A DNA stretch of 39,738 nucleotides from a virus, in the IMG/VR virus record IMGVR_UViG_3300050134_000089, positions 1 through 39,738 of that record. One strand, written 5' to 3'. Both the position numbers and the translations under genes were made by a program. Positions 1 through 39,738 of this stretch are shown here, piece after piece. How positions within the stretch are numbered: position 1 is the stretch's first letter; each line of letters starts with the position of its first letter. The notes beneath the pieces were generated by a model that saw nothing but the letters and a program-made list of their open reading frames with translations, searched no databases and was not told the DNA's origin.

Positions 1-127
1 TACTATCTCCTGCTGTCCACGGAGCATTCCAGGTATTCCAAGTAAATGGAATAGTAAGCCATGTAAATCCGGTAGACGGTTTGAATTGTCCATAAGTAGT
101 ATAACTTTCGTTAAACACAGCCCAAGA
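1..127. repeat. Terminal direct repeat, left copy (identical to 39612..39738)
   Basis: Bases 1..127 (tactatctcctgctgtccacgg...gttaaacacagcccaaga) recur exactly at 39612..39738. This is the signature of a circular or circularly permuted genome written out linearly (assembly overlap). Unique length is 39611 bp. Confidence 0.95.
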
Positions 128-4633: not shown

Positions 4634-5062
4634 TTACTCCGGTGAAATGTTTATAAAGGCTCCTGGAATAGATGTAGATGTATCCTTATTTCCATGACTA
4701 TTGATAGCGCCTGTATTCACATCCCCTATAGCTAATATTTGAGGCTGATTATGGGCTGTTGAAGTCTTGAAAGGGTCTACATTCATTGCAGAGTTGATAT
4801 TCAAAATGACTTGGTTTGGATTTGGTATTGAAATGACGTCGCCTTGGACTTCATCCAATTGTCTACATCCATTGAGATAAGGAATGATTAATCTACAGGT
4901 ATTTCCAACCACATAATCATGATTAACGGATGTTGTCACTGTAGTTGTAGAACCCAATGTAATTGCAGATATAAAAAAAACCCTTGGTTGATAGAACTGA
5001 GGCTCTATCGGTAAATTATTAAACAGTGCTATTGGACCAATATAGGGATAAGGAAAAGCCAT
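4634..5062 (-). CDS. Virion structural protein carrying one copy of the shared T..T...H(G/D)(L/Y)..G module
   Basis: 142-aa ORF with SD GGAGGA upstream. It contains TTVTTSVNHDYVVGNTCRLIIPYLNG...QVILNINS, a module also seen in 5138..6274 and twice in the 998-aa protein. Confidence 0.6.
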   Translation of the reverse strand: MAFPYPYIGPIALFNNLPIEPQFYQPRVFFISAITLGSTTTVTTSVNHDYVVGNTCRLIIPYLNGCRQLDEVQGDVISIPNPNQVILNINSAMNVDPFKTSTAHNQPQILAIGDVNTGAINSHGNKDTSTSIPGAFINISPE

Positions 5063-5076
5063 TCATCCTCCATAGA

Positions 5077-5103
5077 GGGGCAGAGCCAATTTAGCTCTAC
5101 CCC
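5077..5103 (-). promoter_or_regulatory. Intergenic 10-bp stem-loop between two virion genes (mRNA-level element or weak terminator)
   Basis: In the coding sense: GGGGUAGAGC-uaaauug-GCUCUGCCCC (one G-U pair), immediately upstream of the SD of gene 4634..5062. No U-tract follows, so it is not a classic intrinsic terminator. Confidence 0.4.
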
Positions 5104-5137
5104 AATTCTTATGCAGTCAGATCACGACAACATATAT

Positions 5138-6274
5138 TTATGTATTGAGATCGTGAAGGTAAGCGCGCCAAAAGATCGTATCGGCGGCTGTCCCTGCTAC
5201 GGCAGACCCGATAATAAATCCTTGGAACGTAGCATTAATATAAGCACCCTGAATACCAGGTCCATTAATCGTACTAACAGCAGTAGTTGAATACCCATTA
5301 TATACTGTTGGAGAAGGATATAAAGCCGCTCCGGTATATGGGAAACCACCACTATTAATATCTCCGGTTGCAACGACTTTAGCAAATGCAAGTCCAGGGA
5401 ATGACGTAAATGTTGGGTTAGCAACAGAAAACGCCGTTAAGGTTCCTGAATAATTAAATGTAAAGCTTGTTGAACTTGGTACAGTAGTCACATAGAAATA
5501 CTGTGGCGATGCAGGAATCACATTATTGGGAAGTTCATTCAATTGGCCTCCGCCATAGATTGAAGGAAGTTTAAATGCAATTTCTTGACCTATCTGGAAA
5601 TTGTGAGGAGCTGTTGTATTAACAGTCACAACACCAGCAGTAAGACTAATAGACCAAGGATATGCAACTCCTGGAGCATATAAAACGGGATATAAGATTT
5701 GCTTAAATCCTGCAATAAATGCACCTGCCGGCTCATATCCACCAGCTGTAATTGCTGTTAGGTTTGCTGCATTACCTACCCAACCTACTGTAAAAGTAGT
5801 CGTAGATGCTGAAGTCAATACCATAAACGGAATGCCGGCTAATTGCTGCATACCGGTAGTAGCGGTTTGATATAGGTTTTGGAAAACAACCCAATTACCT
5901 GGAACCAATCCATGTGCTGCGGTTGTAGTAACCGTAAGCACTGTTGCGCTTGTCTTTGCAATACCTCCTGAACCATTCAATAATTGAAGAGCTCCATATT
6001 GTAATGACAAACCGGCTTGGATAGTTGAAAATCCGGTACCTGTAGTACTAGAAATAAAACTGGTTCCATCCGCAGGTCCTGCACCCGTAGTAACCGCAAA
6101 AGCAGCTCCTTGGCCCATATCGGACATCCACCATGCTCGTGTAACGCCAGATGCGGCAGTTGCACGAGTAGAATTTGAAATCTCGATAAATGTCGGAGCA
6201 AAAGGACATACAACCACTGTTTGACCACCGGCTGATACTACTTGCCCACTAGCTAATCTGGAATATTCTGCCAT
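5138..6274 (-). CDS. Virion structural protein directly downstream of the capsid gene (decoration or head-associated candidate), two copies of the shared module
   Basis: 378-aa ORF with SD AGGAGG. It contains VLTVTTTAAHGLVPGNWVVFQN...TTFTVGW and VVTVNTTAPHNFQIGQEIAFKL...TSFTFNY. The role is inferred from position only. Confidence 0.6.
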   Translation of the reverse strand: MAEYSRLASGQVVSAGGQTVVVCPFAPTFIEISNSTRATAASGVTRAWWMSDMGQGAAFAVTTGAGPADGTSFISSTTGTGFSTIQAGLSLQYGALQLLNGSGGIAKTSATVLTVTTTAAHGLVPGNWVVFQNLYQTATTGMQQLAGIPFMVLTSASTTTFTVGWVGNAANLTAITAGGYEPAGAFIAGFKQILYPVLYAPGVAYPWSISLTAGVVTVNTTAPHNFQIGQEIAFKLPSIYGGGQLNELPNNVIPASPQYFYVTTVPSSTSFTFNYSGTLTAFSVANPTFTSFPGLAFAKVVATGDINSGGFPYTGAALYPSPTVYNGYSTTAVSTINGPGIQGAYINATFQGFIIGSAVAGTAADTIFWRAYLHDLNT

Positions 6275-6284
6275 ATGAAACCTC

Positions 6285-6707
6285 CTATATTAAGTTCGCG
6301 AGACGCGTACTTAGAACGTTTCGGATCGCAGTATCTTGCGTGATTCCTTGAGCCTGAGCGAATTTAACCGCTAAGGTAGCATTCTGAGCAAGCATTCCAG
6401 AATAGTATGGATCACGATAAATCAGGTTCATGCTATACCCATCCTGATTGATGTGCGTAATCGCCTGTTTACCTAATACCGTGTTATAGTAAAGGTCATT
6501 ACCGTTTGCTGATGCACCACGAGCTACAGGAGCTTCTGAACTGGTCAGAATACGGGTGTTAAAAACAGACCCATATTCAGAGGGAAGCGCAGACGCATTT
6601 GTTGGATAGTTCCATTGAGACAAGAATCCTGACCCTACTAATGAGTCAAAATCTGTCTGCAATTCTGTTGAGCTAAGCATAAAATATGCTGATCTCACAG
6701 GGCCTGT
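6285..6707 (-). CDS. Major capsid protein, exon 4 of 4
   Basis: TGPVRSAYFMLSSTELQ...NVLSTRLANLI*. It begins right after the terminal G of intron C (GGUAACAGAAUUG|ACA). The frame is the same as track ORF 6285..6722. Confidence 0.75.
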   Translation of the reverse strand, partial: TGPVRSAYFMLSSTELQTDFDSLVGSGFLSQWNYPTNASALPSEYGSVFNTRILTSSEAPVARGASANGNDLYYNTVLGKQAITHINQDGYSMNLIYRDPYYSGMLAQNATLAVKFAQAQGITQDTAIRNVLSTRLANLI

Positions 6708-7043
6708 CAATTCTGTTACCACCTTATAGAGGCGAGTAGGTCATTTCTGCCTACTTCTCGGATTTTATTTATATTCCGAGTTCGGACTATCGCATACGTT
6801 ATTTCTAACGTCTTCGGGATTTAGTCTCTCAGGCTGATATGAATATTTAAGATGGTTATTCCAAGAATCGATAATCTCTTTTGCAGCTTCTTCACTTCCG
6901 AAAAACTCTGCAAAGGATTGAGTCGTGATTACTTTACCATCTTTATGTTCTTCTTTCATATCTTGCCCCTTGTTAACCTTCTATGCTGCCATAGCAAGGC
7001 ACTCCAAGTCAATTACCCAAAGTTTTAATTCGGCACACATTTT
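6708..7043 (-). mobile_element. Group I-like intron C in the capsid gene (336 nt)
   Basis: P1 hairpin AUUCGGU-aaaaugugu-GCCGAAU (7050..7028) with a U-G wobble at the phase-0 splice site. Shared blocks UUGACUUGGA and AACAAGGGGCAAGAU, hairpin GUAGG-cagaaauga-CCUAC, and 3' end GGUAACAGAAUUG. Contains ORF 6765..6959. Confidence 0.7.
6765..6959 (-). CDS. Intron C-encoded small protein (64 aa), homolog of the intron A ORF
   Basis: SD-like AAGGGG 8 nt upstream. FAEFFGSEEAAKEIIDSW...YSYQPERLNPEDV aligns with THIFDSYDECIDIIRQICRYNQPERSKREDV of ORF 8249..8572. No known homing-endonuclease motif seen. Confidence 0.55.
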   Translation of the reverse strand: MKEEHKDGKVITTQSFAEFFGSEEAAKEIIDSWNNHLKYSYQPERLNPEDVRNNVCDSPNSEYK

Positions 7044-7220
7044 ACCGAATCTATCCATACCCTCGATACCGCTCATAAATTTATAAGCATTGTTGGTATC
7101 AAGAGTCGTAGCCACTAAACTAAAGTCACTAATACCTAGGTTAGTTGGATTATCACCATTGGAACCACCACCAGCATTAATCTGGGAAGCAGCTGAAACA
7201 ATATAATCACGCAAAATTAG
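7044..7220 (-). CDS. Major capsid protein, exon 3 of 4
   Basis: LILRDYIVSAASQINAGGGSNGDNPTNLGISDFSLVATTLDTNNAYKFMSGIEGMDRFG. It starts after the intron B terminal G (7221) and ends at U7044 in the P1 of intron C. Track ORF 6981..7223 runs on into intron C. Confidence 0.75.
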
Positions 7221-7911
7221 CAATCTGTTACTTTTGTGACCTGTTCTTTATACAGGCGGAGAAACCTCTTCGGATCTCTCTCTCATAGTTACCTATGAGT
7301 TCAGACTTTCGCATCTCTATTTCTAGAGTCCAACCGCTAAGTCGTTCACGGTGGTATTAAATTACCATTTATGTTAACCTTTAAGAAAAGGAGAACACTC
7401 ATGTGGACAAACGAACAACTTGCCTATCTTGCTGGAGTAATCGACGGTGAAGGCACGATTTACGTTTCTAAAAGAAAAAATCGCGGTCTTGATGATTATT
7501 GGCCAAGAGTACAAATTGTAAATACCAACAAACCAATGATGGTATATATCCACAATACGTTTGGTGGTCTTTTTTACGAAAAGAATAGGAGTAAGCATTC
7601 CAAAAAATGGAAAACACAATATGAATGGGTTACAAATCGAACCCTTATGGATATCATATTGCCTTTGGTTATTCCCTATCTCATCTGCAAAAAACCGCAA
7701 GCTGAATTGATGATAAAATTTAGAGATACCTTTCAGAAAAACACCAAAATTCGTGTCTCTCAAGAAGTTTTGACTCTTAGAATCGATATTTTTCATCAAA
7801 TGCAATCCTTAAACAAACGTGGCATTTAAAACCTTCCGCCTTGTTGCCCTTTCACCAGGGTGATAAGGATTTCCAAGTCAATCAGGTTAGATTTATCGAG
7901 GACTAATTTTA
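7221..7911 (-). mobile_element. Group I-like intron B in the capsid gene (691 nt) with antisense LAGLIDADG gene
   Basis: P1 hairpin GAGGAU-uaaaauua-GUCCUC (7917..7898) with a U-G at the phase-0 site. AUAAAUCU..CUGAUUGACUUGGAA block nearly identical to intron A. GNRA hairpins CUCUA-GAAA-UAGAG and CUCAUAG-GUAA-CUAUGAG. 3' end AAGUAACAGAUUG. The P1 loop is complementary to the start of exon 3 (UAAUUUUG), which is P10-like. Confidence 0.7.
7401..7829 (+). CDS. LAGLIDADG homing endonuclease (single-motif, about 142 aa), antisense to its host intron
   Basis: MWTNEQLAYLAGVIDGEGTIYV... carries the LAGLIDADG motif (LAGVIDGEG). AAGGAG SD 8 nt upstream of the ATG at 7401 (the track start 7371 is less likely). 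The size fits homodimeric I-CreI-type enzymes. Confidence 0.8.
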   Translation: MWTNEQLAYLAGVIDGEGTIYVSKRKNRGLDDYWPRVQIVNTNKPMMVYIHNTFGGLFYEKNRSKHSKKWKTQYEWVTNRTLMDIILPLVIPYLICKKPQAELMIKFRDTFQKNTKIRVSQEVLTLRIDIFHQMQSLNKRGI

Positions 7912-8076
7912 ATCCTCGGCTTGGCGCATGGCTACAGCAAGTCTTTCACTCACCCAAGCCAATACCTTTTACGCCGCAGCTAAGAGGGCGTATTCACCCT
8001 CCTGATCTTGAAGTATCACCTGTTCATTGATGATACAACCAGTTCCAAAAAAAGCCATTTGCGCATCGATTATGTC
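7912..8076 (-). CDS. Major capsid protein, exon 2 of 4 (contains in-frame TAA at 7969..7971)
   Basis: DIIDAQMAFFGTGCIINEQVILQDQEGEYALLAAA[TAA]KVLAWVSERLAVAMRQAED. It starts after the intron A terminal G (8077) and ends at U7912. The sequence on both sides of the TAA reads as a continuous capsid E-loop/spine-helix region in one frame. Confidence 0.65.
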
Positions 8077-8656
8077 CTATCTGTTACTTATTGACCTAAA
8101 TTAATCCGGAGGATGGAATCGAACCATCGTGGGACTGACTTGTCACTTTCGTGGTTTGTCGCTGTCCGATCCCTATCACGGGACTGCCTCACACCATTAT
8201 GGCATCTCTAGCATATTTAGGCGGGCCAAATCTTCTCAGCTGGCCTCACTATTTCTCAATAGTGTTCAGAGCACCGCATCGCATACATAATGTTTGATCT
8301 TTAGGCATCCATGTATTCATATGTCCTAATTCTTCACATTCTTTATATACGTCTTCTCGCTTGCTGCGTTCAGGCTGATTATATCTGCATATTTGACGAA
8401 TAATATCGATGCATTCATCATAACTATCAAAAATATGTGTTAAACAAACTTCTTCTTGATTATGTATCATTTCACCCATCAAAAAAAACCCTGAGTGACA
8501 TTTTTGAACCCAAATATGTGAAATGTTTCTAAGATTAAATGCATCATCACTTTCTAAATATATCCATTCCATAATCTTGCCCCTTGTTGTCCGTCCACTT
8601 TATGCGGCGAGGAGTTCCAAGTCTATCAGAGAAGATTTATACAGCGCAACACGTCT
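8077..8656 (-). mobile_element. Group I-like intron A in the capsid gene (580 nt)
   Basis: P1 hairpin ACAGCGU-agacguguu-GCGCUGU (8663..8641) with a U-G at the phase-0 site. P10-like pairing GACAU/GUGUU with the exon 2 start. Shared blocks CUGAUAGACUUGGAA and ACAAGGGGCAAGAU. CAC-GAAA-GUG hairpin. 3' end AAGUAACAGAUAG. Contains ORF 8249..8572. Confidence 0.7.
8249..8572 (-). CDS. Intron A-encoded small protein (107 aa), no recognisable nuclease motif
   Basis: AAGGGG SD-like box upstream of the ATG at 8572. The N-terminal 65 aa resemble free-standing ORFs 19845..20036 and 20085..20291. The C-terminal part shares QPER..EDV with the intron C ORF. Confidence 0.6.
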   Translation of the reverse strand: MEWIYLESDDAFNLRNISHIWVQKCHSGFFLMGEMIHNQEEVCLTHIFDSYDECIDIIRQICRYNQPERSKREDVYKECEELGHMNTWMPKDQTLCMRCGALNTIEK

Positions 8657-8896
8657 ACGCTGTGGAACCTGTGCAGGGGGGTCGATGCCCGAATTTCCCA
8701 ATTGAATAGTTGGGGGAATCAAGGCTCTTGGTCTCATAAAACGGCATGTAGTTCCGCCATTAACAGGCATCGAAACCTTATCGCAGACCGTAATATAGTT
8801 CATGGTAGGAGTTGGGACGTAAAGCATAGCGGGAGCTAAGCTTTGTAAGATCATCGGCCCCAAATTTCCTGTATTCGTAATCATGAGTTTTCCCAT
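8657..8896 (-). CDS. Major capsid protein, exon 1 of 4
   Basis: MGKLMITNTGNLGPMILQSL...TTCRFMRPRALIPPTIQLGNSGIDPPAQVPQR. The F.R...L....L.(E/N)G..P pattern is typical of HK97-fold capsid proteins. Track ORF 8600..8896 continues into intron A (..VALYKSSLIDLELLAA*). Confidence 0.75.
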
Positions 8897-9045
8897 GTAA
8901 ACGATTATAGTGATATGATGATCGGCATGCGAACCTAACTACGCGGATTTTCAATCATATCTTTGGGAGGGAAGCGATTTCCTCTAACGCTGATGCATAG
9001 TACGATATGCGGCGAAATTTCTTTATATCTTATTAAATATTTAAT

Positions 9046-9255
9046 TTACCAAAACAATTCATAGTTATTGGGAATCTTTTTCATTCTGTATTCATCAGTT
9101 TTTGGTTTGAATCCATGTTTAGATTCATCTTTCACAGGAACATAATAGTAATTCGAATGTGAATGAATACTCCAGACATATTGCGACAAATCTTCATCAT
9201 CTTTTATGCGGACTAATTTATGTATATCGCCGCCGATCAAAGCATATTTCTCCAT
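9046..9255 (-). CDS. Hypothetical small protein (69 aa)
   Basis: Track ORF on the operon strand, between the scaffold and capsid genes. No motif recognised. Confidence 0.45.
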   Translation of the reverse strand: MEKYALIGGDIHKLVRIKDDEDLSQYVWSIHSHSNYYYVPVKDESKHGFKPKTDEYRMKKIPNNYELFW

Positions 9256-13332: not shown

Positions 13333-15465
13333 CTAACTTAATTGTTGTTGAGGAGCGTTTTGCCCCATCGTATTTTGAGAGGGATTTTTTTGCAATCCCC
13401 CCATTATCTTTGACATAAACTCATTCGACAATGCTTCTTGATGAGCCTTATTCTTATCGACATCTTCAATTGCTTGCTGACGATAATCAAATGATTCAAT
13501 CTCACTCATCTTAAGATTGGTCTCAATCTCTCCATAGCGTTGAATGACATCAATCATCTTCTCAAGAGCTTCCATCTTAGCTTTAGTGGAAAGAGCACGG
13601 TTCTTAGATACTTCCGCCATGCGTTCTTCAAGAAGACCAATATTACTCTCAAATCTACCATAGCGCTCTTTAGCCATTGCAATATTAGCTGCTGATTTAG
13701 AGAGCATCTCTTTGAGTTTCGCTTCTTCAAATGAATGTTGAATGTTTTGCTCTTCTTCTTGAATGGCTTGCGCTTGTTCTTCTTGTTGTTGCAGGAATGG
13801 AATAATCTCGCCTTTACCAGTAATATTGAGTTTAGGAATGATCATTGAAGGTGGGAAGACTTCGCGACCAAATGCAGCATTCATTTCAAGCATTTGCTGA
13901 GCTTGCAGATTCGATTGAGTAGGCGTTAATTCACCCTCTTCGACCAATACACTATATTTTGCAAATATTTTAGAATAAAAGAACGGCGAAGGCTCTTCGT
14001 TTATGAGTAATTTAACCTTTTCGGCATTCCAATTGTTGAGAACTATAGATAAAAGCTTATCTCCAAGCATTTTTAAAGAATAATCCCATTGATCAAAGTA
14101 CTTTTGGAATACCATCAGATTCGCAGCTTGCTTAATCATGGCAGTCAAAGCGCTTGTCTGCTTATCCTGTTGGCCTGACCAGTTTTCTAGATTGATACCT
14201 GAGGTTTGATACATCAAATTCATCATTTGTTCAGCAAGAGCCATATCGGATTCGGGAACACCGCTAGGAATGATCTTCTCGACATCGGTCATTTCAAAAC
14301 CATCATTGACGAGGATATCCCAACCTTGACCCGATTTCTTTAGATTATCTTCGTTAGCGACTGCCCCTACTTTTCGTTTCCATCCTGCATTAATTGTAGC
14401 CGCTGTAATATCGTTATTTTGTATCACCTTCCAATTGAATAGATATTGGCTCGATCTCATGGTCCGGATTAGGCCTCTCACACGTAGGTCAAAATAGGTG
14501 TTATGAGGTTCATAATTCCAGAATACCGGCACGAAAGGACACCCATCGAATCCTAGCGGATTTTCGCCTTGGTACATAAGAGAATCATTTAATATCGTTG
14601 CTAGTTTCCAGCAAGGGACATCGACATCAACTACTTCCATATCGGGAATATTATAGAGAATGGCGTCTAAATCTGCATCGGGTGCGAAATCAAAGAATTG
14701 GTTCTTAGTGTGGCTATAAAGCTTTTTCTTTTTCTTTTTCCATTTGTACCACACATAAGAAAGCACCATGAGATCATTACGGGCCATGTTATAATTCTCT
14801 GGCAGAAAATAAAACGATCCATATCTTTGAGGCGTACCTGACATAGGTGCAATGTTCTGTATCTTATCTGGAAAGCGTTCCTCAGCCTCTTTTTTAGAGA
14901 TATACTCTTGACACCATACGTAGGAAGCATCGGACATGGAATGGTCCCTAAAATAGGGATCAACGAGAAACGAGTTGTATTCCCACAATTTGACCTTAAG
15001 ACTCCCTTGTGCCGGATCATCTTGATAGTCTAAGTATGGCTGTAATAATACCATCCCACAAATAGCCGCTTGGTGACATGCTCTTGAGAATTGTTCGTTG
15101 ATACCCTCTTTATTGACTACATGCGTTATCAGTTTAGTATATTGATCAGTCGTTTGAGCATCTGCGCCGTCTGTAGGTGTATATACAATCGATTTTCTAT
15201 GCTGAGATTGATAGCCACTAACCATGTTTATAGGCTGTTGGCATATATTGAAGTAATATTCGTTATTATTTGTGCTTTGAGCTGCACCGAAATGTCTATT
15301 AACGTAACTCTGAGCACCTGCATAAAACATAGTGTCAATATTACTCTGATTCCAACGACTTTGCTCAATCGGCTGAAATTTGCTATAGAGATTATCCAAC
15401 CATTGGCGCACATTGCCTTGATTAGGCTCTAGGGCATTATTCCAAGGTGGATAGTAAAAAGTCAT
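13333..15465 (-). CDS. Portal protein
   Basis: 710-aa ORF immediately downstream of the terminase genes, with a long helical, charged C-terminal region. Size and synteny are typical of podovirus/P22-like portals. No search was run. Confidence 0.7.
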   Translation of the reverse strand: MTFYYPPWNNALEPNQGNVRQWLDNLYSKFQPIEQSRWNQSNIDTMFYAGAQSYVNRHFGAAQSTNNNEYYFNICQQPINMVSGYQSQHRKSIVYTPTDGADAQTTDQYTKLITHVVNKEGINEQFSRACHQAAICGMVLLQPYLDYQDDPAQGSLKVKLWEYNSFLVDPYFRDHSMSDASYVWCQEYISKKEAEERFPDKIQNIAPMSGTPQRYGSFYFLPENYNMARNDLMVLSYVWYKWKKKKKKLYSHTKNQFFDFAPDADLDAILYNIPDMEVVDVDVPCWKLATILNDSLMYQGENPLGFDGCPFVPVFWNYEPHNTYFDLRVRGLIRTMRSSQYLFNWKVIQNNDITAATINAGWKRKVGAVANEDNLKKSGQGWDILVNDGFEMTDVEKIIPSGVPESDMALAEQMMNLMYQTSGINLENWSGQQDKQTSALTAMIKQAANLMVFQKYFDQWDYSLKMLGDKLLSIVLNNWNAEKVKLLINEEPSPFFYSKIFAKYSVLVEEGELTPTQSNLQAQQMLEMNAAFGREVFPPSMIIPKLNITGKGEIIPFLQQQEEQAQAIQEEEQNIQHSFEEAKLKEMLSKSAANIAMAKERYGRFESNIGLLEERMAEVSKNRALSTKAKMEALEKMIDVIQRYGEIETNLKMSEIESFDYRQQAIEDVDKNKAHQEALSNEFMSKIMGGLQKNPSQNTMGQNAPQQQLS

Positions 15466-15690: not shown

Positions 15691-16005
15691 TCAATCGTCT
15701 TTATTTACTTGCTTCATCTCTACATAACACTGATCATATATTTTTTTTATTCCAACTATAGATTTGCATAAATGTTGCATTTCTTCTTCTGTTTTTTGCG
15801 TAAAAGAACATAATGAAGCAATCAAGCAAGTTAGTGCCAAAGACATTTCAAAAACTGAAACTGATATGCCACTATTTTCACAAAAATCAATTATTTTTTG
15901 TGAATTTTCTTGTGCTTTTCTAAAATCTACTAAACTTTCTTCTTTATTTTTATCGTCCACATCATCCTCTATGTCCAAATCGGTTATTCCAGTCATTTCC
16001 CCCAC
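15691..16005 (-). CDS. Hypothetical acidic protein (104 aa)
   Basis: Track ORF. Overlaps the TerL 3' end by 44 nt. Confidence 0.4.
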   Translation of the reverse strand: MGEMTGITDLDIEDDVDDKNKEESLVDFRKAQENSQKIIDFCENSGISVSVFEMSLALTCLIASLCSFTQKTEEEMQHLCKSIVGIKKIYDQCYVEMKQVNKDD

Positions 16006-17242
16006 CTAGACGCTTTCCTTGATCATAAGGGTTATATATAGTAACCTTATGCGTATTAATTACATAGCGTAATGCATCAATGCAATGATCATCCTTCTTT
16101 AAAGGCTCATCCCATCCTTTTTCAGACGCTTTTGTATCCCAAACGTATGATTCTATCTCTCGTATTGTGTTCTTGCAACCTTCGCAAACGTAAAGCATTC
16201 CTCGCTTCATCTCAGATGTAAGTTTATAGATGCCTTCTTCAACGTCGTTATCTGCATCAATTGGTCTCATTCCAAGTTTACGCAGTTCGGCTTTGAATGA
16301 TGCTGCGCTTGGGTCAATATATAGGCTTTTAATATCATAGTCTTGAAGGAACTCTTGCACATCATTGGCAAGCTCTAGATTAGTTTTAGTTCTTTCGCGT
16401 TTTTTATGATCCCAGAAGTACTCTTTTTCTACCCACATTACTTTCCCCGTTTGAGTATTTTGGCCGGTAGATACACCAATAAGTAAACAGGCAAAAGGAT
16501 TACTAGCACCATAATCAATACCGGCAACCCAATAATCCGCAGACGCGGGGGGCCTCTTCTTAACATATATTTTGTGATCCCAAAAATCAAAGATAGCACC
16601 TTCAGCAAGACACCAAAGACCAAGATAATTGCGTTTATAAAAAATGCCCGAAGAAGAATCACGGATGCGGTCTTTATATTGCTGATCAACATAGGGAGTA
16701 TCATCTAATGTGAAGTGAAGTGAATAATAGTTTGGGTCACCTATCGCGGCCTTATCAATCCATTGCTTAATCTTATGCTTTGGATGTGATGGGTTCATAG
16801 CCGCGAATCCACGACTATATGGAAGCGATAAACGGCTATCAATCATGTCTATAATAGATTCCGGGTAGAGTGTCATTTCATCACAGTAAACTAAAGACAT
16901 AGTCAAGCCTTGAAAGTTACCAATGGCACCTTCGTCCTTGGCACCAAGAACCGTTATGATCTTATCTTTAAAATAAAGCTTTTTACCTGACCAAGAAAGA
17001 AACGGCCTAAAGATGGACATCTCTTCAGACTCTAGGAGAAGCCTAACGACATTTCTATAGGCCGAATCGAAAGTATGACCTACGATATAGATCTGAGAAT
17101 CGGGGCATTTGTAGACTGCATGCATGAAAGCAAAGACAGTGCAAACAGTTTTACCGCTTCTCACGCTACCATCAGCAAGATTCCATTTGGCTTTGCAATT
17201 AGAAATAAATTCTAGTTGCTTTGGTGCGAATGGGTCTGGCAT
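15962..17242 (-). CDS. terL: Terminase large subunit
   Basis: 426 aa. Walker A-like DGSVRSGKT near the N-terminus, acidic Walker B-like LVYCDE, and a C-terminal nuclease-like region with conserved D residues (GIDYG, DDHCIDALRY). Size fits the PBSX/Terminase_3-type TerL. Confidence 0.8.
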   Translation of the reverse strand: MPDPFAPKQLEFISNCKAKWNLADGSVRSGKTVCTVFAFMHAVYKCPDSQIYIVGHTFDSAYRNVVRLLLESEEMSIFRPFLSWSGKKLYFKDKIITVLGAKDEGAIGNFQGLTMSLVYCDEMTLYPESIIDMIDSRLSLPYSRGFAAMNPSHPKHKIKQWIDKAAIGDPNYYSLHFTLDDTPYVDQQYKDRIRDSSSGIFYKRNYLGLWCLAEGAIFDFWDHKIYVKKRPPASADYWVAGIDYGASNPFACLLIGVSTGQNTQTGKVMWVEKEYFWDHKKRERTKTNLELANDVQEFLQDYDIKSLYIDPSAASFKAELRKLGMRPIDADNDVEEGIYKLTSEMKRGMLYVCEGCKNTIREIESYVWDTKASEKGWDEPLKKDDHCIDALRYVINTHKVTIYNPYDQGKRLGGGNDWNNRFGHRG

Positions 17243-17412
17243 TAATCTTTGTTGATCTCTTGAAGATTTTTATAGATCATGTAGAATGAAATAATCAACG
17301 CTAGGAATAAGACGAATATGAGTGAGACTTTACAAAAACCCACAAAAAAAGAGCTTATAGATATGTTGGACGAGATGAATGCTAACATAGAAAGGCTGCC
17401 TCCATATGCGCT

Positions 17413-38548: not shown

Positions 38549-39738
38549 GAGAGCAATGAACTCGTATATAAATCTAATATGAAGGCATGTAATTCTATCT
38601 CTTCTATAGCACTTATAGGTTTGCCTGTTATACCTGTTTGTCGCATTTGATCATTGGAAAGAGTAAATCCAAGCTGAATAGTATCTCCTATAAGAGAGGT
38701 ATTCATCCGATGCCAAATCTGTTCTTGTGAATTTGCAATAGGGTTTTGAATATTCGTCACATTATATATGAAGTTCGTCATTGTCGTTTCTTGATTGGGT
38801 GCTACTGTGAAGGCAATCGTAATAAGACTATTGGCATAATCAATAGAAGATCCCGCAGAAGTTCCGGTTCCTGTAGCTACAAAGCCACCAATTCCATTAT
38901 CTGTAAAAGTAGCTATAGTGCCAATTTGGATAAAAATACTTCCCGGTACTATTCCTAGTTCTACATATTGGAATATGTTTGAATACATGAAAGTGAAAGA
39001 TGTCAAAATACCATTTCCAATTAACCCTAAGGATACTCTAGAGACGGCTTGCTGGTAATATTCAGGCGATGTAAAAACAGTTTGAGAATAAATTAAAGAG
39101 TTATTGTCCGGAGGTGGACTATTTGTGGGCACGATTGTACCAGCATTATAAGGGTCGCTAATATCCTCACTTAAATAAATATTTACGGTGATTTGGGTAT
39201 TAGGAAGATCTGTTTTAGTCAGAAGATATTGTTGTATTCCTACACGCGTTTTTCTTGATAATCCCCAACTAGGTGGAAATTGCCGTGTTTTGATTAAAGG
39301 AACATAAAGCCTTGTTATCTGTCCCCCTCCTTGATAGGTACCGGTAATTATAGGAGGAGCACTTATCATGATTGTATTTGTCGTTACCATGAGAACTTGA
39401 AAGATACTTCCATTGATGAGAGTTCCCATTGCTCCATTGGCACCGGTAATGATAATAAAATCATTCGTGTTCAAAGAATGATTAGGCGAAGTTACGGTTT
39501 GTCCAACGATATTTTGAATGGATAAACTTGGCGCTTCGGATGTGGTCTCATCTTCCCTAAATACAATGTATCCTTGTTGATTGCCTGCGATAACTTGAGG
39601 ATCGAGTAATGTACTATCTCCTGCTGTCCACGGAGCATTCCAGGTATTCCAAGTAAATGGAATAGTAAGCCATGTAAATCCGGTAGACGGTTTGAATTGT
39701 CCATAAGTAGTATAACTTTCGTTAAACACAGCCCAAGA
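38545..39738 (-). CDS. C-terminal part of the 998-aa virion/tail protein (unique sequence to 39611; 39612..39738 duplicates 1..127)
   Basis: Track ORF 38545..39729 starts only at an internal GTG near the window edge. The frame is continuous with 1..1930 on the circular map. Contains a further copy of the shared module (TVTSPNHSLNTNDFIIITGANG...). Confidence 0.8.
   Translation of the reverse strand, partial: SWAVFNESYTTYGQFKPSTGFTWLTIPFTWNTWNAPWTAGDSTLLDPQVIAGNQQGYIVFREDETTSEAPSLSIQNIVGQTVTSPNHSLNTNDFIIITGANGAMGTLINGSIFQVLMVTTNTIMISAPPIITGTYQGGGQITRLYVPLIKTRQFPPSWGLSRKTRVGIQQYLLTKTDLPNTQITVNIYLSEDISDPYNAGTIVPTNSPPPDNNSLIYSQTVFTSPEYYQQAVSRVSLGLIGNGILTSFTFMYSNIFQYVELGIVPGSIFIQIGTIATFTDNGIGGFVATGTGTSAGSSIDYANSLITIAFTVAPNQETTMTNFIYNVTNIQNPIANSQEQIWHRMNTSLIGDTIQLGFTLSNDQMRQTGITGKPISAIEEIELHAFILDLYTSSLLS
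39612..39738. repeat. Terminal direct repeat, right copy (identical to 1..127)
   Basis: Exact 127-bp identity with the window start. Confidence 0.95.

Follow-up and report, generated by a model that had tools for sequence, protein, structure and literature searches.

The major capsid gene and its intervening sequences

The viral record IMGVR_UViG_3300050134_000089, analysed here as one stretch of 39,738 nucleotides (nt) termed the window, carries on its minus strand a major capsid gene which, when aligned with its homologs, consists of five exons and four intervening sequences (Table 1). Three of these inserts (introns A, B and C) are large and are additions to a known kind, the phage group I introns. 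The fourth, referred to as the mini-insert, is the notable part of the locus, as it appears to be a group I variant dependent on the ribozyme of a sibling intron. A sequence-only reading of the same DNA had recognised the capsid frame as four fragments (8896..8657, 8076..7912, 7220..7044 and 6707..6285) separated by inserts of 580, 691 and 336 nt (8656..8077, 7911..7221 and 7043..6708), and all of these positions and lengths proved exact. The joined fragments had also been described as an open frame of 334 codons in four exons. However, the second fragment is interrupted by an in-frame TAA (7971..7969) which lies within an overlooked, core-less insert of 30 nt (7995..7966), giving five exons and a product of 324 amino acids.

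Intact alleles of the gene fix the junctions of all four inserts. In an alignment with ten uninterrupted homologs, the joints QR|DI, AED|LIL and RFG|TGP are unbroken and the mini-insert is missing from all ten. Removal of the four inserts leaves a frame of 324 codons, the product of which aligns without gaps to the intact homolog P0001 (94.7% identity over 319 amino acids) and matches PHROG 1357 (major head protein) with an E-value (E) of 6e-12. Against TIGR04387 it scores 76.5 bits (cut-off 60), with residues 30-310 following profile positions 24-315 in one stretch, which bears out the expectation that the fragments would be colinear with a single capsid family. A database search with the joined fragments returned 1,519 relatives, the top ones being uninterrupted proteins of 321-325 amino acids with approximately 90% identity, encoded on contigs of 36-42 kilobases (kb) and labelled by some sources as "N4-gp56 family major capsid protein". 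A sequence search of the PDB with the spliced capsid found nothing.

A 30-nt insert with group I splice-site signals

If it were not removed, the mini-insert would halt capsid synthesis at codon 116, and because of this stop codon its removal is needed for the capsid to be made. The last eight exon bases pair with the insert in a P1 helix of 8 base pairs (bp; 8003..7996/7989..7982) that ends in the wobble U7996·G7989, and directly adjacent to it a P10 helix of 5 bp (7994..7990/7965..7961) is formed with the first bases of the next exon. When the region is folded, the P1 hairpin (8-9 bp) is obtained as the minimum-energy structure and also as the centroid. Only 16 nt separate the guide sequence from the terminal G and there is therefore no catalytic core in the insert; hidden Markov models (HMMs) of the core of the intron family described below gave no match at this position, and no P3-P9 core of its own was found. 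Judged by these features, the 30-nt insert is an element without self-splicing ability of its own which nevertheless carries the substrate signals of a group I intron. Five distinct relatives occupy the same site in other phages.

Mini-inserts in related phages

Mini-inserts were found in 120 instances in 116 loci from viral and metagenome contigs of many samples, representing 93 distinct sequences of 30-79 nt (individual loci are cited by L numbers). They occupy three sites of the capsid gene: FFG|TGC (site 88), GCI|INE (site 92) and QEG|VLA (site 104, the one occupied in the window). The first search pattern had caught mostly terminator-like hairpins, and L437 and L441 were chance matches. 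All 93 distinct sequences are preceded by U, and when site 88 was searched again without requiring a terminal G, the last nucleotide was G in all 75 of its mini-inserts. The reading frame is broken by 82 of the 93, and the remaining 11 all carry an in-frame stop.

The pairings seen in the window recur throughout. In the 41 distinct mini-inserts from viral contigs, P1 measures 6-9 bp and the directly adjacent P10 3-9 bp. P10 reached at least 4 bp in 20 of the 21 mini-inserts found first, compared with a mean of 1.0 bp in controls with swapped 3' exons, none of which reached 4 bp. At site 88, P1 position -3 is C-G in 19 sequences and U-A in 4 with zero mismatches, position -6 is U-A in 15 and C-G in 6, and P10 position +3 is U-A in 18, A-U in 3 and C-G in 1. 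The threonine codon that follows the insert at this site changes synonymously between ACU, ACA and ACC, with its guide partner being A, U or G to match. At site 104 the P10 of the window (AAUAC/GUAUU) is replaced elsewhere by GUAC/GUAC, UGAGUAC/GUACUUG or GAU/GUC; the four copies first seen at this site have four different P10 helices, each fitting its own exon. Because these pairings co-vary with the exons, the mini-inserts are under selection for group I splice-site geometry.

As regards their origin, a full-size sibling occupies exactly site 88 in L036 with a P1 identical to that of the mini-inserts, and for this reason the mini-inserts would most simply derive from full-size introns by internal deletion. 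The L036 sibling itself (reverse strand, approximately 179-890) appears internally duplicated, with two P4-P6 and two P7-P9 segments. In two loci a pair of mini-inserts, at sites 88 and 104, stands beside full-size introns (L293, 10258-10292 and 10615-10647; L450, 4769-4808 and 5637-5684).

Mini-inserts occur together with full-size introns. All 80 mini-bearing genes with sequence reaching at least residue 200 contain full-size insert sequence of at least 150 nt, and the 5' module of a sibling lies downstream of the mini-insert in 89 of 94 instances, at a median distance of 64 nt. Of 192 capsid genes sampled without bias, at least 76 are insert-free, and mini-inserts are present in none of these 76. 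L525 and L559, in which a mini-insert seemed to lack a helper, were dismissed as exceptions on finding inserts of 640-680 nt that the motif search had missed. The mini-insert of the window is separated by 54 nt from the start of intron B on its downstream side and by 81 nt from the end of intron A on its upstream side.

A compact family of group I introns

The large inserts share blocks of sequence by which their relatives can be found. Such sharing had been noticed from the sequence, and across all 39.7 kb of the window the motifs GACTTGGA, ACAAGG[GC]G and GTAACAGA are found exactly three times apiece, always inside these inserts. DNA patterns made from the blocks matched well over 120 viral contigs; the first of them (GACTTGGA...AACAAGG) lacked specificity, chance accounting for most of its 120 matches, and the matches were filtered with nhmmer. 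The 173 copies retained have a P1 of 5-10 bp with a U·G end, in which the exon strand differs in sequence from one site to the next, and 526 distinct 5' modules were counted in the retrieved loci of related phage contigs. Nearly all examined copies lie in capsid genes of one phage clade, at many sites, and a single gene can hold as many as five inserts (L158, L292). The presence of several such introns in one gene had been called unusual, which does not hold for the large introns, as they are common in this clade, but does hold for the mini-insert. In L156, two siblings without an open reading frame (ORF) lie in a portal-like gene (4746-4950 and 5062-5266) while the capsid gene is uninterrupted; the family thus extends beyond capsid genes.

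The fold of the family was established from an alignment of 62 ORF-less copies of 156-300 nt. RNAalifold recovered P3, P4, P5, P6, P8, P9 and P9.1, to which P7 was then added as a pseudoknot; P1, which varies with the exon and was misaligned by MAFFT, was scored together with P10 by a dedicated script. In this fold 95.4% of the cells are paired, compared with 39-47% when the partners are slid, and 31 of the 37 pairs show compensatory change. The covariation score of 0.581, obtained from pair counts irrespective of the kinship of the copies, compares with 0.171 for shuffles and was reached by none of 500 shuffles. Within P7, alignment pair 205-282 is G-C in 59 of 59 copies and lies beside a bulge at column 283, and this conserved pair with its bulge is the predicted guanosine-binding site. 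The R-like and S-like strands (…ACGACUAA… and …GAUAGUC…) agree with the classical group I consensus. On this predicted fold, the family is a genuine and very compact group I family without P2.

A check against the Rfam group I model had been suggested, and it returned no match: a scan of the window gave no group I hit at the gathering threshold and none up to E 10 for 6000..9200. Because the fold is backed by covariation, this failure is regarded as a limit of the model and not of the RNA. In one locus (L111, 2945-3057) the P4-P8 region of an ORF-less sibling gave a sub-threshold match to LOOT RNA (RF03000; 26.9 bits, E 0.003), which was not reproduced in eight other loci.

Introns A, B and C

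That the window contains three sibling group I introns was upheld, as each large insert fits the covariation-backed fold (P1, P10, P3, P4, P6-P9, P9.1, P9.2 and a terminal G) and profiles built only from relatives on other contigs detect three modules of the 5' kind (E 1e-14 to 2e-8), three of the 3' kind and no others anywhere in the window. The P1 hairpins with terminal U·G and the terminal G that had been predicted are present in all three inserts, and so are the P10 pairings, which had been proposed for A and B. A foldable core (P3-P8, including P7) had likewise been anticipated, and every helix mapped onto the three inserts (Table 1) was checked and found to be complementary. The equivalents of the conserved P7 pair are G8367-C8269, G7343-C7304 and G6826-C6785, and each terminal G sits at a junction set by the protein alignment. 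Intron-less alleles are abundant. From the fold and the splice-site features there is little doubt about the group I nature of A, B and C.

Family HMMs match intron A at 8644-8576, 8378-8334 and 8284-8223, with the 3' module in two pieces because of its long L8. The insertion in L9.2 of this intron is absent from the family consensus and contains GGUUCGAUUCC, which resembles a tRNA T-loop; ARAGORN found no tRNA there. Intron B (7900-7832, E 4.5e-13; 7355-7254, E 2.6e-18) carries in its L6 a LAGLIDADG homing-endonuclease ORF (PF00961, E 1.6e-6; PHROG 5046, E 3.5e-23), antisense to both the intron and the capsid transcript, with a likely start at ATG 7401 that is preceded by a strong AAGGAG ribosome-binding site. 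A promoter scan for this antisense gene gave no site above chance. Siblings in L445 and L232 appear to hold similar antisense ORFs. Intron C is matched at 7028-6962 (E 2e-8) and 6837-6730 (E 2.3e-13). The ORFs of introns A and C both begin in L6, right after the Shine-Dalgarno-like P6 strand AAGGGGCAAG, and neither matched a known protein family; their mutual similarity ('QPER..EDV') is the translated conserved J6/7-P7-P3' RNA and nothing more.

The target of intron C, UUCGGU|ACAGG (RFG|TG; 7044..7050|6705..6707), and that of site 88 in relatives, UUCGGU|ACUGG (FFG|TG; for example L080, 12133-12190), are one target for the guide sequence, and an intron could therefore have moved between the two sites. 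Site 88 of the window itself reads UUUGGA|ACUGG and is empty.

A proposed borrowing of a sibling ribozyme, and its alternatives

What a group I core recognises in P1 is the shape of the helix and its U·G wobble, and in vitro it can also process a P1 to which it is not attached. As the mini-insert cannot fold a guanosine-binding core, a helper core would have to come from elsewhere. In the proposed account, the mini-insert is a deletion remnant in which the substrate half of a group I intron survives, namely the terminal G and the guide sequence that forms P1 and P10. A sibling intron in the same RNA would lend its folded core, which would dock the P1/P10 helix of the mini-insert and perform both guanosine-dependent transesterifications; in the window, introns B and A are the candidate helpers. 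From its sequence features, this relic probably needs the ribozyme of a neighbouring intron for its removal, and splicing by group I chemistry borrowed from a sibling is accordingly the favoured account of the mini-insert, held with moderate confidence. The wider proposal, that the group I introns of this clade have split into autonomous ribozymes and core-less minis of 30-79 nt spliced by a sibling core on the same transcript, is put forward a little more guardedly, as slightly favoured.

Several observations weigh against this proposal. A P1 that is not tethered to its core docks weakly, and help would be needed in cis or at high RNA concentration, although such weak docking fits the constant presence of a helper on the same transcript. 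No conserved motif or pairing partner was found for the tails of the mini-inserts (14-31 nt), and a search by eye for pairing between the tail of the mini-insert in the window and the neighbouring exon or intron B gave nothing convincing. The 93 mini-inserts occupy just three sites and have few independent origins, and their co-occurrence with full-size introns could partly result from common descent or homing hitch-hiking and not from functional dependence. In three instances a recognisable sibling lies only upstream. RF00028 stayed below threshold on the window and on 25 related loci (17 + 8), the best score being 18.2 bits against a threshold of 50; this score belongs to one ORF-less sibling, and the only matches were sub-threshold ones to Intron_gpI and LOOT. 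Finally, whereas the family fold, the anatomy of the mini-insert, the selection on its pairings and its co-occurrence with full-size introns can be read from the sequences, the splicing of all four inserts, and with it the sibling core as catalyst, is something we infer.

The strongest of the alternatives is that the mini-insert is removed from the RNA by a protein endonuclease and an RNA ligase of host or phage, or by another factor that recognises the hairpin. The data do not identify the catalyst directly, no mini-helper pairing was found, and three mini-inserts have a recognisable sibling only upstream, all of which would suit a protein. However, the conserved U·G wobble, the P10 adjacent to P1 and the terminal G are what a group I active site reads and would not be required by such enzymes, and the presence of a full-size intron in all 80 mini-bearing genes would be left unexplained, which makes a protein route unlikely.

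Alternatively, the 30-nt insert could be kept in the messenger RNA and passed by a hopping ribosome, in the manner of the T4 gene 60 bypass, with only A, B and C being spliced. Inserts of 30-79 nt are within the range of known coding gaps, the final exon codon GGU lies inside a stable hairpin as a bypass would require (the same hairpin being P1), and a codon read by the same tRNA follows soon after the insert at sites 88 (GGU...GGC) and 92 (AUU...AUC). At site 104, however, the one GGU located downstream (7966..7964) lies in another frame, which ends in UGA, and the take-off GGU is followed by GAA, so that there is no stop after take-off. Landing on GGC at site 88 would drop the invariant T and G of FFGTGC. 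Furthermore, a bypass does not predict that the skipped triplet should remain a threonine codon (ACU/ACA/ACC) whose third base co-varies with the upstream guide, and it leaves the U before every insert and the G at its end unexplained. Bypass was thus rejected at site 104, where there is no in-frame landing codon, and disfavoured at the other sites, and overall it is considered improbable, slightly more so than a protein route.

A defective capsid gene, which would yield no complete capsid and whose 30-nt insert would be a non-functional, stop-containing scar or an artefact of assembly, could account for the in-frame TAA in a metagenome assembly that has no isolate and no match in a phage collection. 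This is very unlikely given that homologous mini-inserts are present in 116 loci from many samples as 93 distinct sequences, that their pairings are kept by compensatory changes implying purifying selection on a working element, and that the gene is otherwise undamaged, sharing 94.7% identity with uninterrupted alleles. It is scarcely credible that the large inserts are unspliced mobile DNA elements (a miniature IS200/IS605-like type) merely resembling introns, as the absence of group I introns from the Rfam results and the subterminal hairpins without target-site duplications might suggest, since they have a complete group I fold including a pseudoknot backed by covariation, re-form P1 with a different exon at each of 173 insertion sites and number up to five in intact genes of an essential protein.

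Genome context

The ends of the window (1-127 and 39612-39738) are an exact direct repeat of 127 nt, and the window is therefore taken to represent a genome of 39,611 bp that was assembled as a circle and has a G+C content of 36%. Searches of 50,697 phage records with the region (blastn) and with the capsid (tblastn) gave no match, and the phage thus has no cultured relative among them. An intron in the gene for the large terminase subunit was considered and rejected, as the gap of 170 nt at 17243..17412 has no intron features. Because capsid homologs begin with MITNTG, translation of the capsid may in truth begin at ATG 8884 and not at ATG 8896. Positions 8933..8904, near the capsid start, hold a promoter-like sequence, TTCGCA-18-TATAAT.

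Table 1. Coordinates of the capsid exons, the predicted introns with their helices and other features of the window
Feature	Coordinates	Strand	Description
Capsid exon 1	8657..8896	-	80 codons; translation contiguous with exon 2a in homologs
Intron A	8077..8656	-	predicted group I intron, 580 nt, terminal G 8077
Intron A P1	8663..8657/8647..8641		7 bp, U·G end
Intron A P10	8652..8648/8076..8072		5 bp
Intron A P3	8635..8629/8358..8352
Intron A P7	8367,8365..8362/8273..8269
Intron A P8	8351..8345/8288..8282		long L8
Intron A P9	8264..8259/8252..8247
Intron A P9.1
Intron A P9.2	8221..8215/8101..8095
Intron A ORF	8249..8572	-	107 codons, begins in L6, crosses P6-P9 core
Intron A L9.2 insertion	8102..8214	-	113 nt, GNRA hairpins and GGUUCGAUUCC
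Capsid exon 2a	7996..8076	-	27 codons, DIIDAQMAFFGTGCIINEQVILQDQEG
Mini-insert	7966..7995	-	putative core-less mini-intron, 30 nt, EYALLAAA*K, follows U, terminal G 7966
Capsid exon 2b	7912..7965	-	18 codons, VLAWVSERLAVAMRQAED
Intron B	7221..7911	-	predicted group I intron, 691 nt, terminal G 7221
Intron B P1	7917..7912/7903..7898		6 bp, U·G end
Intron B P10	7910..7903/7220..7213		8 bp
Intron B P3	7891..7885/7335..7329
Intron B P6	7839..7836/7351..7348
Intron B P7	7343..7339/7308..7304
Intron B P8	7328..7324/7319..7315		GAAA loop
Intron B P9, P9.1, P9.2
LAGLIDADG homing-endonuclease ORF	7371..7829	+	in L6 of intron B
Capsid exon 3	7044..7220	-	59 codons
Intron C	6708..7043	-	predicted group I intron, 336 nt, terminal G 6708
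Intron C P1	7050..7044/7034..7028		7 bp, U·G end
Intron C P10	7037..7035/6707..6705		3 bp
Intron C P3	7022..7016/6818..6812
Intron C P6/P6a
Intron C P7	6826..6822/6789..6785
Intron C P8	6811..6806/6801..6796		GAAA loop
Intron C P9, P9.1
Intron C ORF	6765..6959	-	64 codons, overlaps P7-P9
Capsid exon 4	6285..6707	-	140 codons and TAG stop
Predicted tryptic capsid peptide			spans ...ILQDQEGVLAWVSER
Portal protein	13333..15465
Large terminase subunit	15962..17242

Significance

The large introns represent a widespread family that is invisible to the standard Rfam model, with the consequence that automated annotation gives the capsid genes as fragments; on their own they would be of moderate interest. 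If a sibling core does excise the mini-inserts, these would be, as far as could be found, the first natural group I introns to survive without a ribozyme of their own, meaning that a family of self-splicing introns can evolve dependent, substrate-only members and that a division of labour between enzyme and substrate exists naturally in group I splicing, in parallel to the route proposed to lead from self-splicing group II to spliceosomal introns. One phage gene with a 30-nt intron and three neighbouring candidate helpers would then also be a small and tractable system in which to study how a catalytic RNA reads an unattached substrate helix and how intron dependence evolves. In annotation, inserts of 30-80 nt that break the frame of phage genes need not point to recoding, to a pseudogene or to an error of sequencing. 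The full-text literature searched, most of it outside subscription journals, contained no account of group I introns lacking a core, and an earlier one may exist.

Comparison with known systems

Group I introns, often with homing-endonuclease genes, are known from several phages, including those in td, nrdB and sunY of T4 and in the DNA polymerase genes of the SPO1 group. Introns A, B and C have in common with them the P1 with its U·G pair, P10, the terminal G and the P3/P7 pseudoknot, as well as ORFs in peripheral loops, insertion at conserved codons of essential genes and intron-less alleles in close relatives. However, the present family is without P2, has ORF-less copies of only 156-300 nt and escapes RF00028. 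In A and C the ORFs extend into the core, and the endonuclease gene of B is antisense. The self-splicing group I introns of phages have been reviewed (PMC2988022).

The T4 gene 60, in which a coding gap of 50 nt is passed by ribosomal bypass (PMC5462505, PMC11194080), resembles the capsid gene with its mini-insert in that an essential phage gene is interrupted by a short non-coding gap whose 5' edge carries a hairpin. In contrast to gene 60, the site in the window has neither matched in-frame take-off and landing codons nor a stop after take-off, and its gap bears the marks of a group I splice site, which co-vary with the exon sequences.

Among phage genes with more than one related group I intron, the closest parallel is orf142 of the Staphylococcus phage Twort, which reportedly contains three. 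The relatives described here exceed this number, with up to five full-size siblings per capsid gene (L158, L292), and whereas we know of no core-less derivatives in Twort, they are present here.

Loss of the catalytic RNA with retention of the recognition elements is also seen in spliceosomal introns and in degenerate introns of groups II and III, all of which rely on catalysts supplied in trans. They resemble the mini-inserts in this respect but belong to another ribozyme class and use another chemistry. Within group I, ribozymes engineered from the Tetrahymena and sunY introns in the late 1980s-1990s cleave or ligate a separate P1 helix, which they read by its shape and U·G pair and not by its sequence, and the same chemistry is proposed for the mini-intron. 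Those ribozymes are laboratory constructs, while the split suggested here would be natural, within one transcript and needed for the capsid. Naturally split, trans-spliced group I introns occur in organelle cox1 genes and illustrate, as the mini-inserts would, group I splicing from non-contiguous parts. However, in cox1 the two halves rebuild a single core, whereas in these phages a complete intron would serve a second, core-less one.

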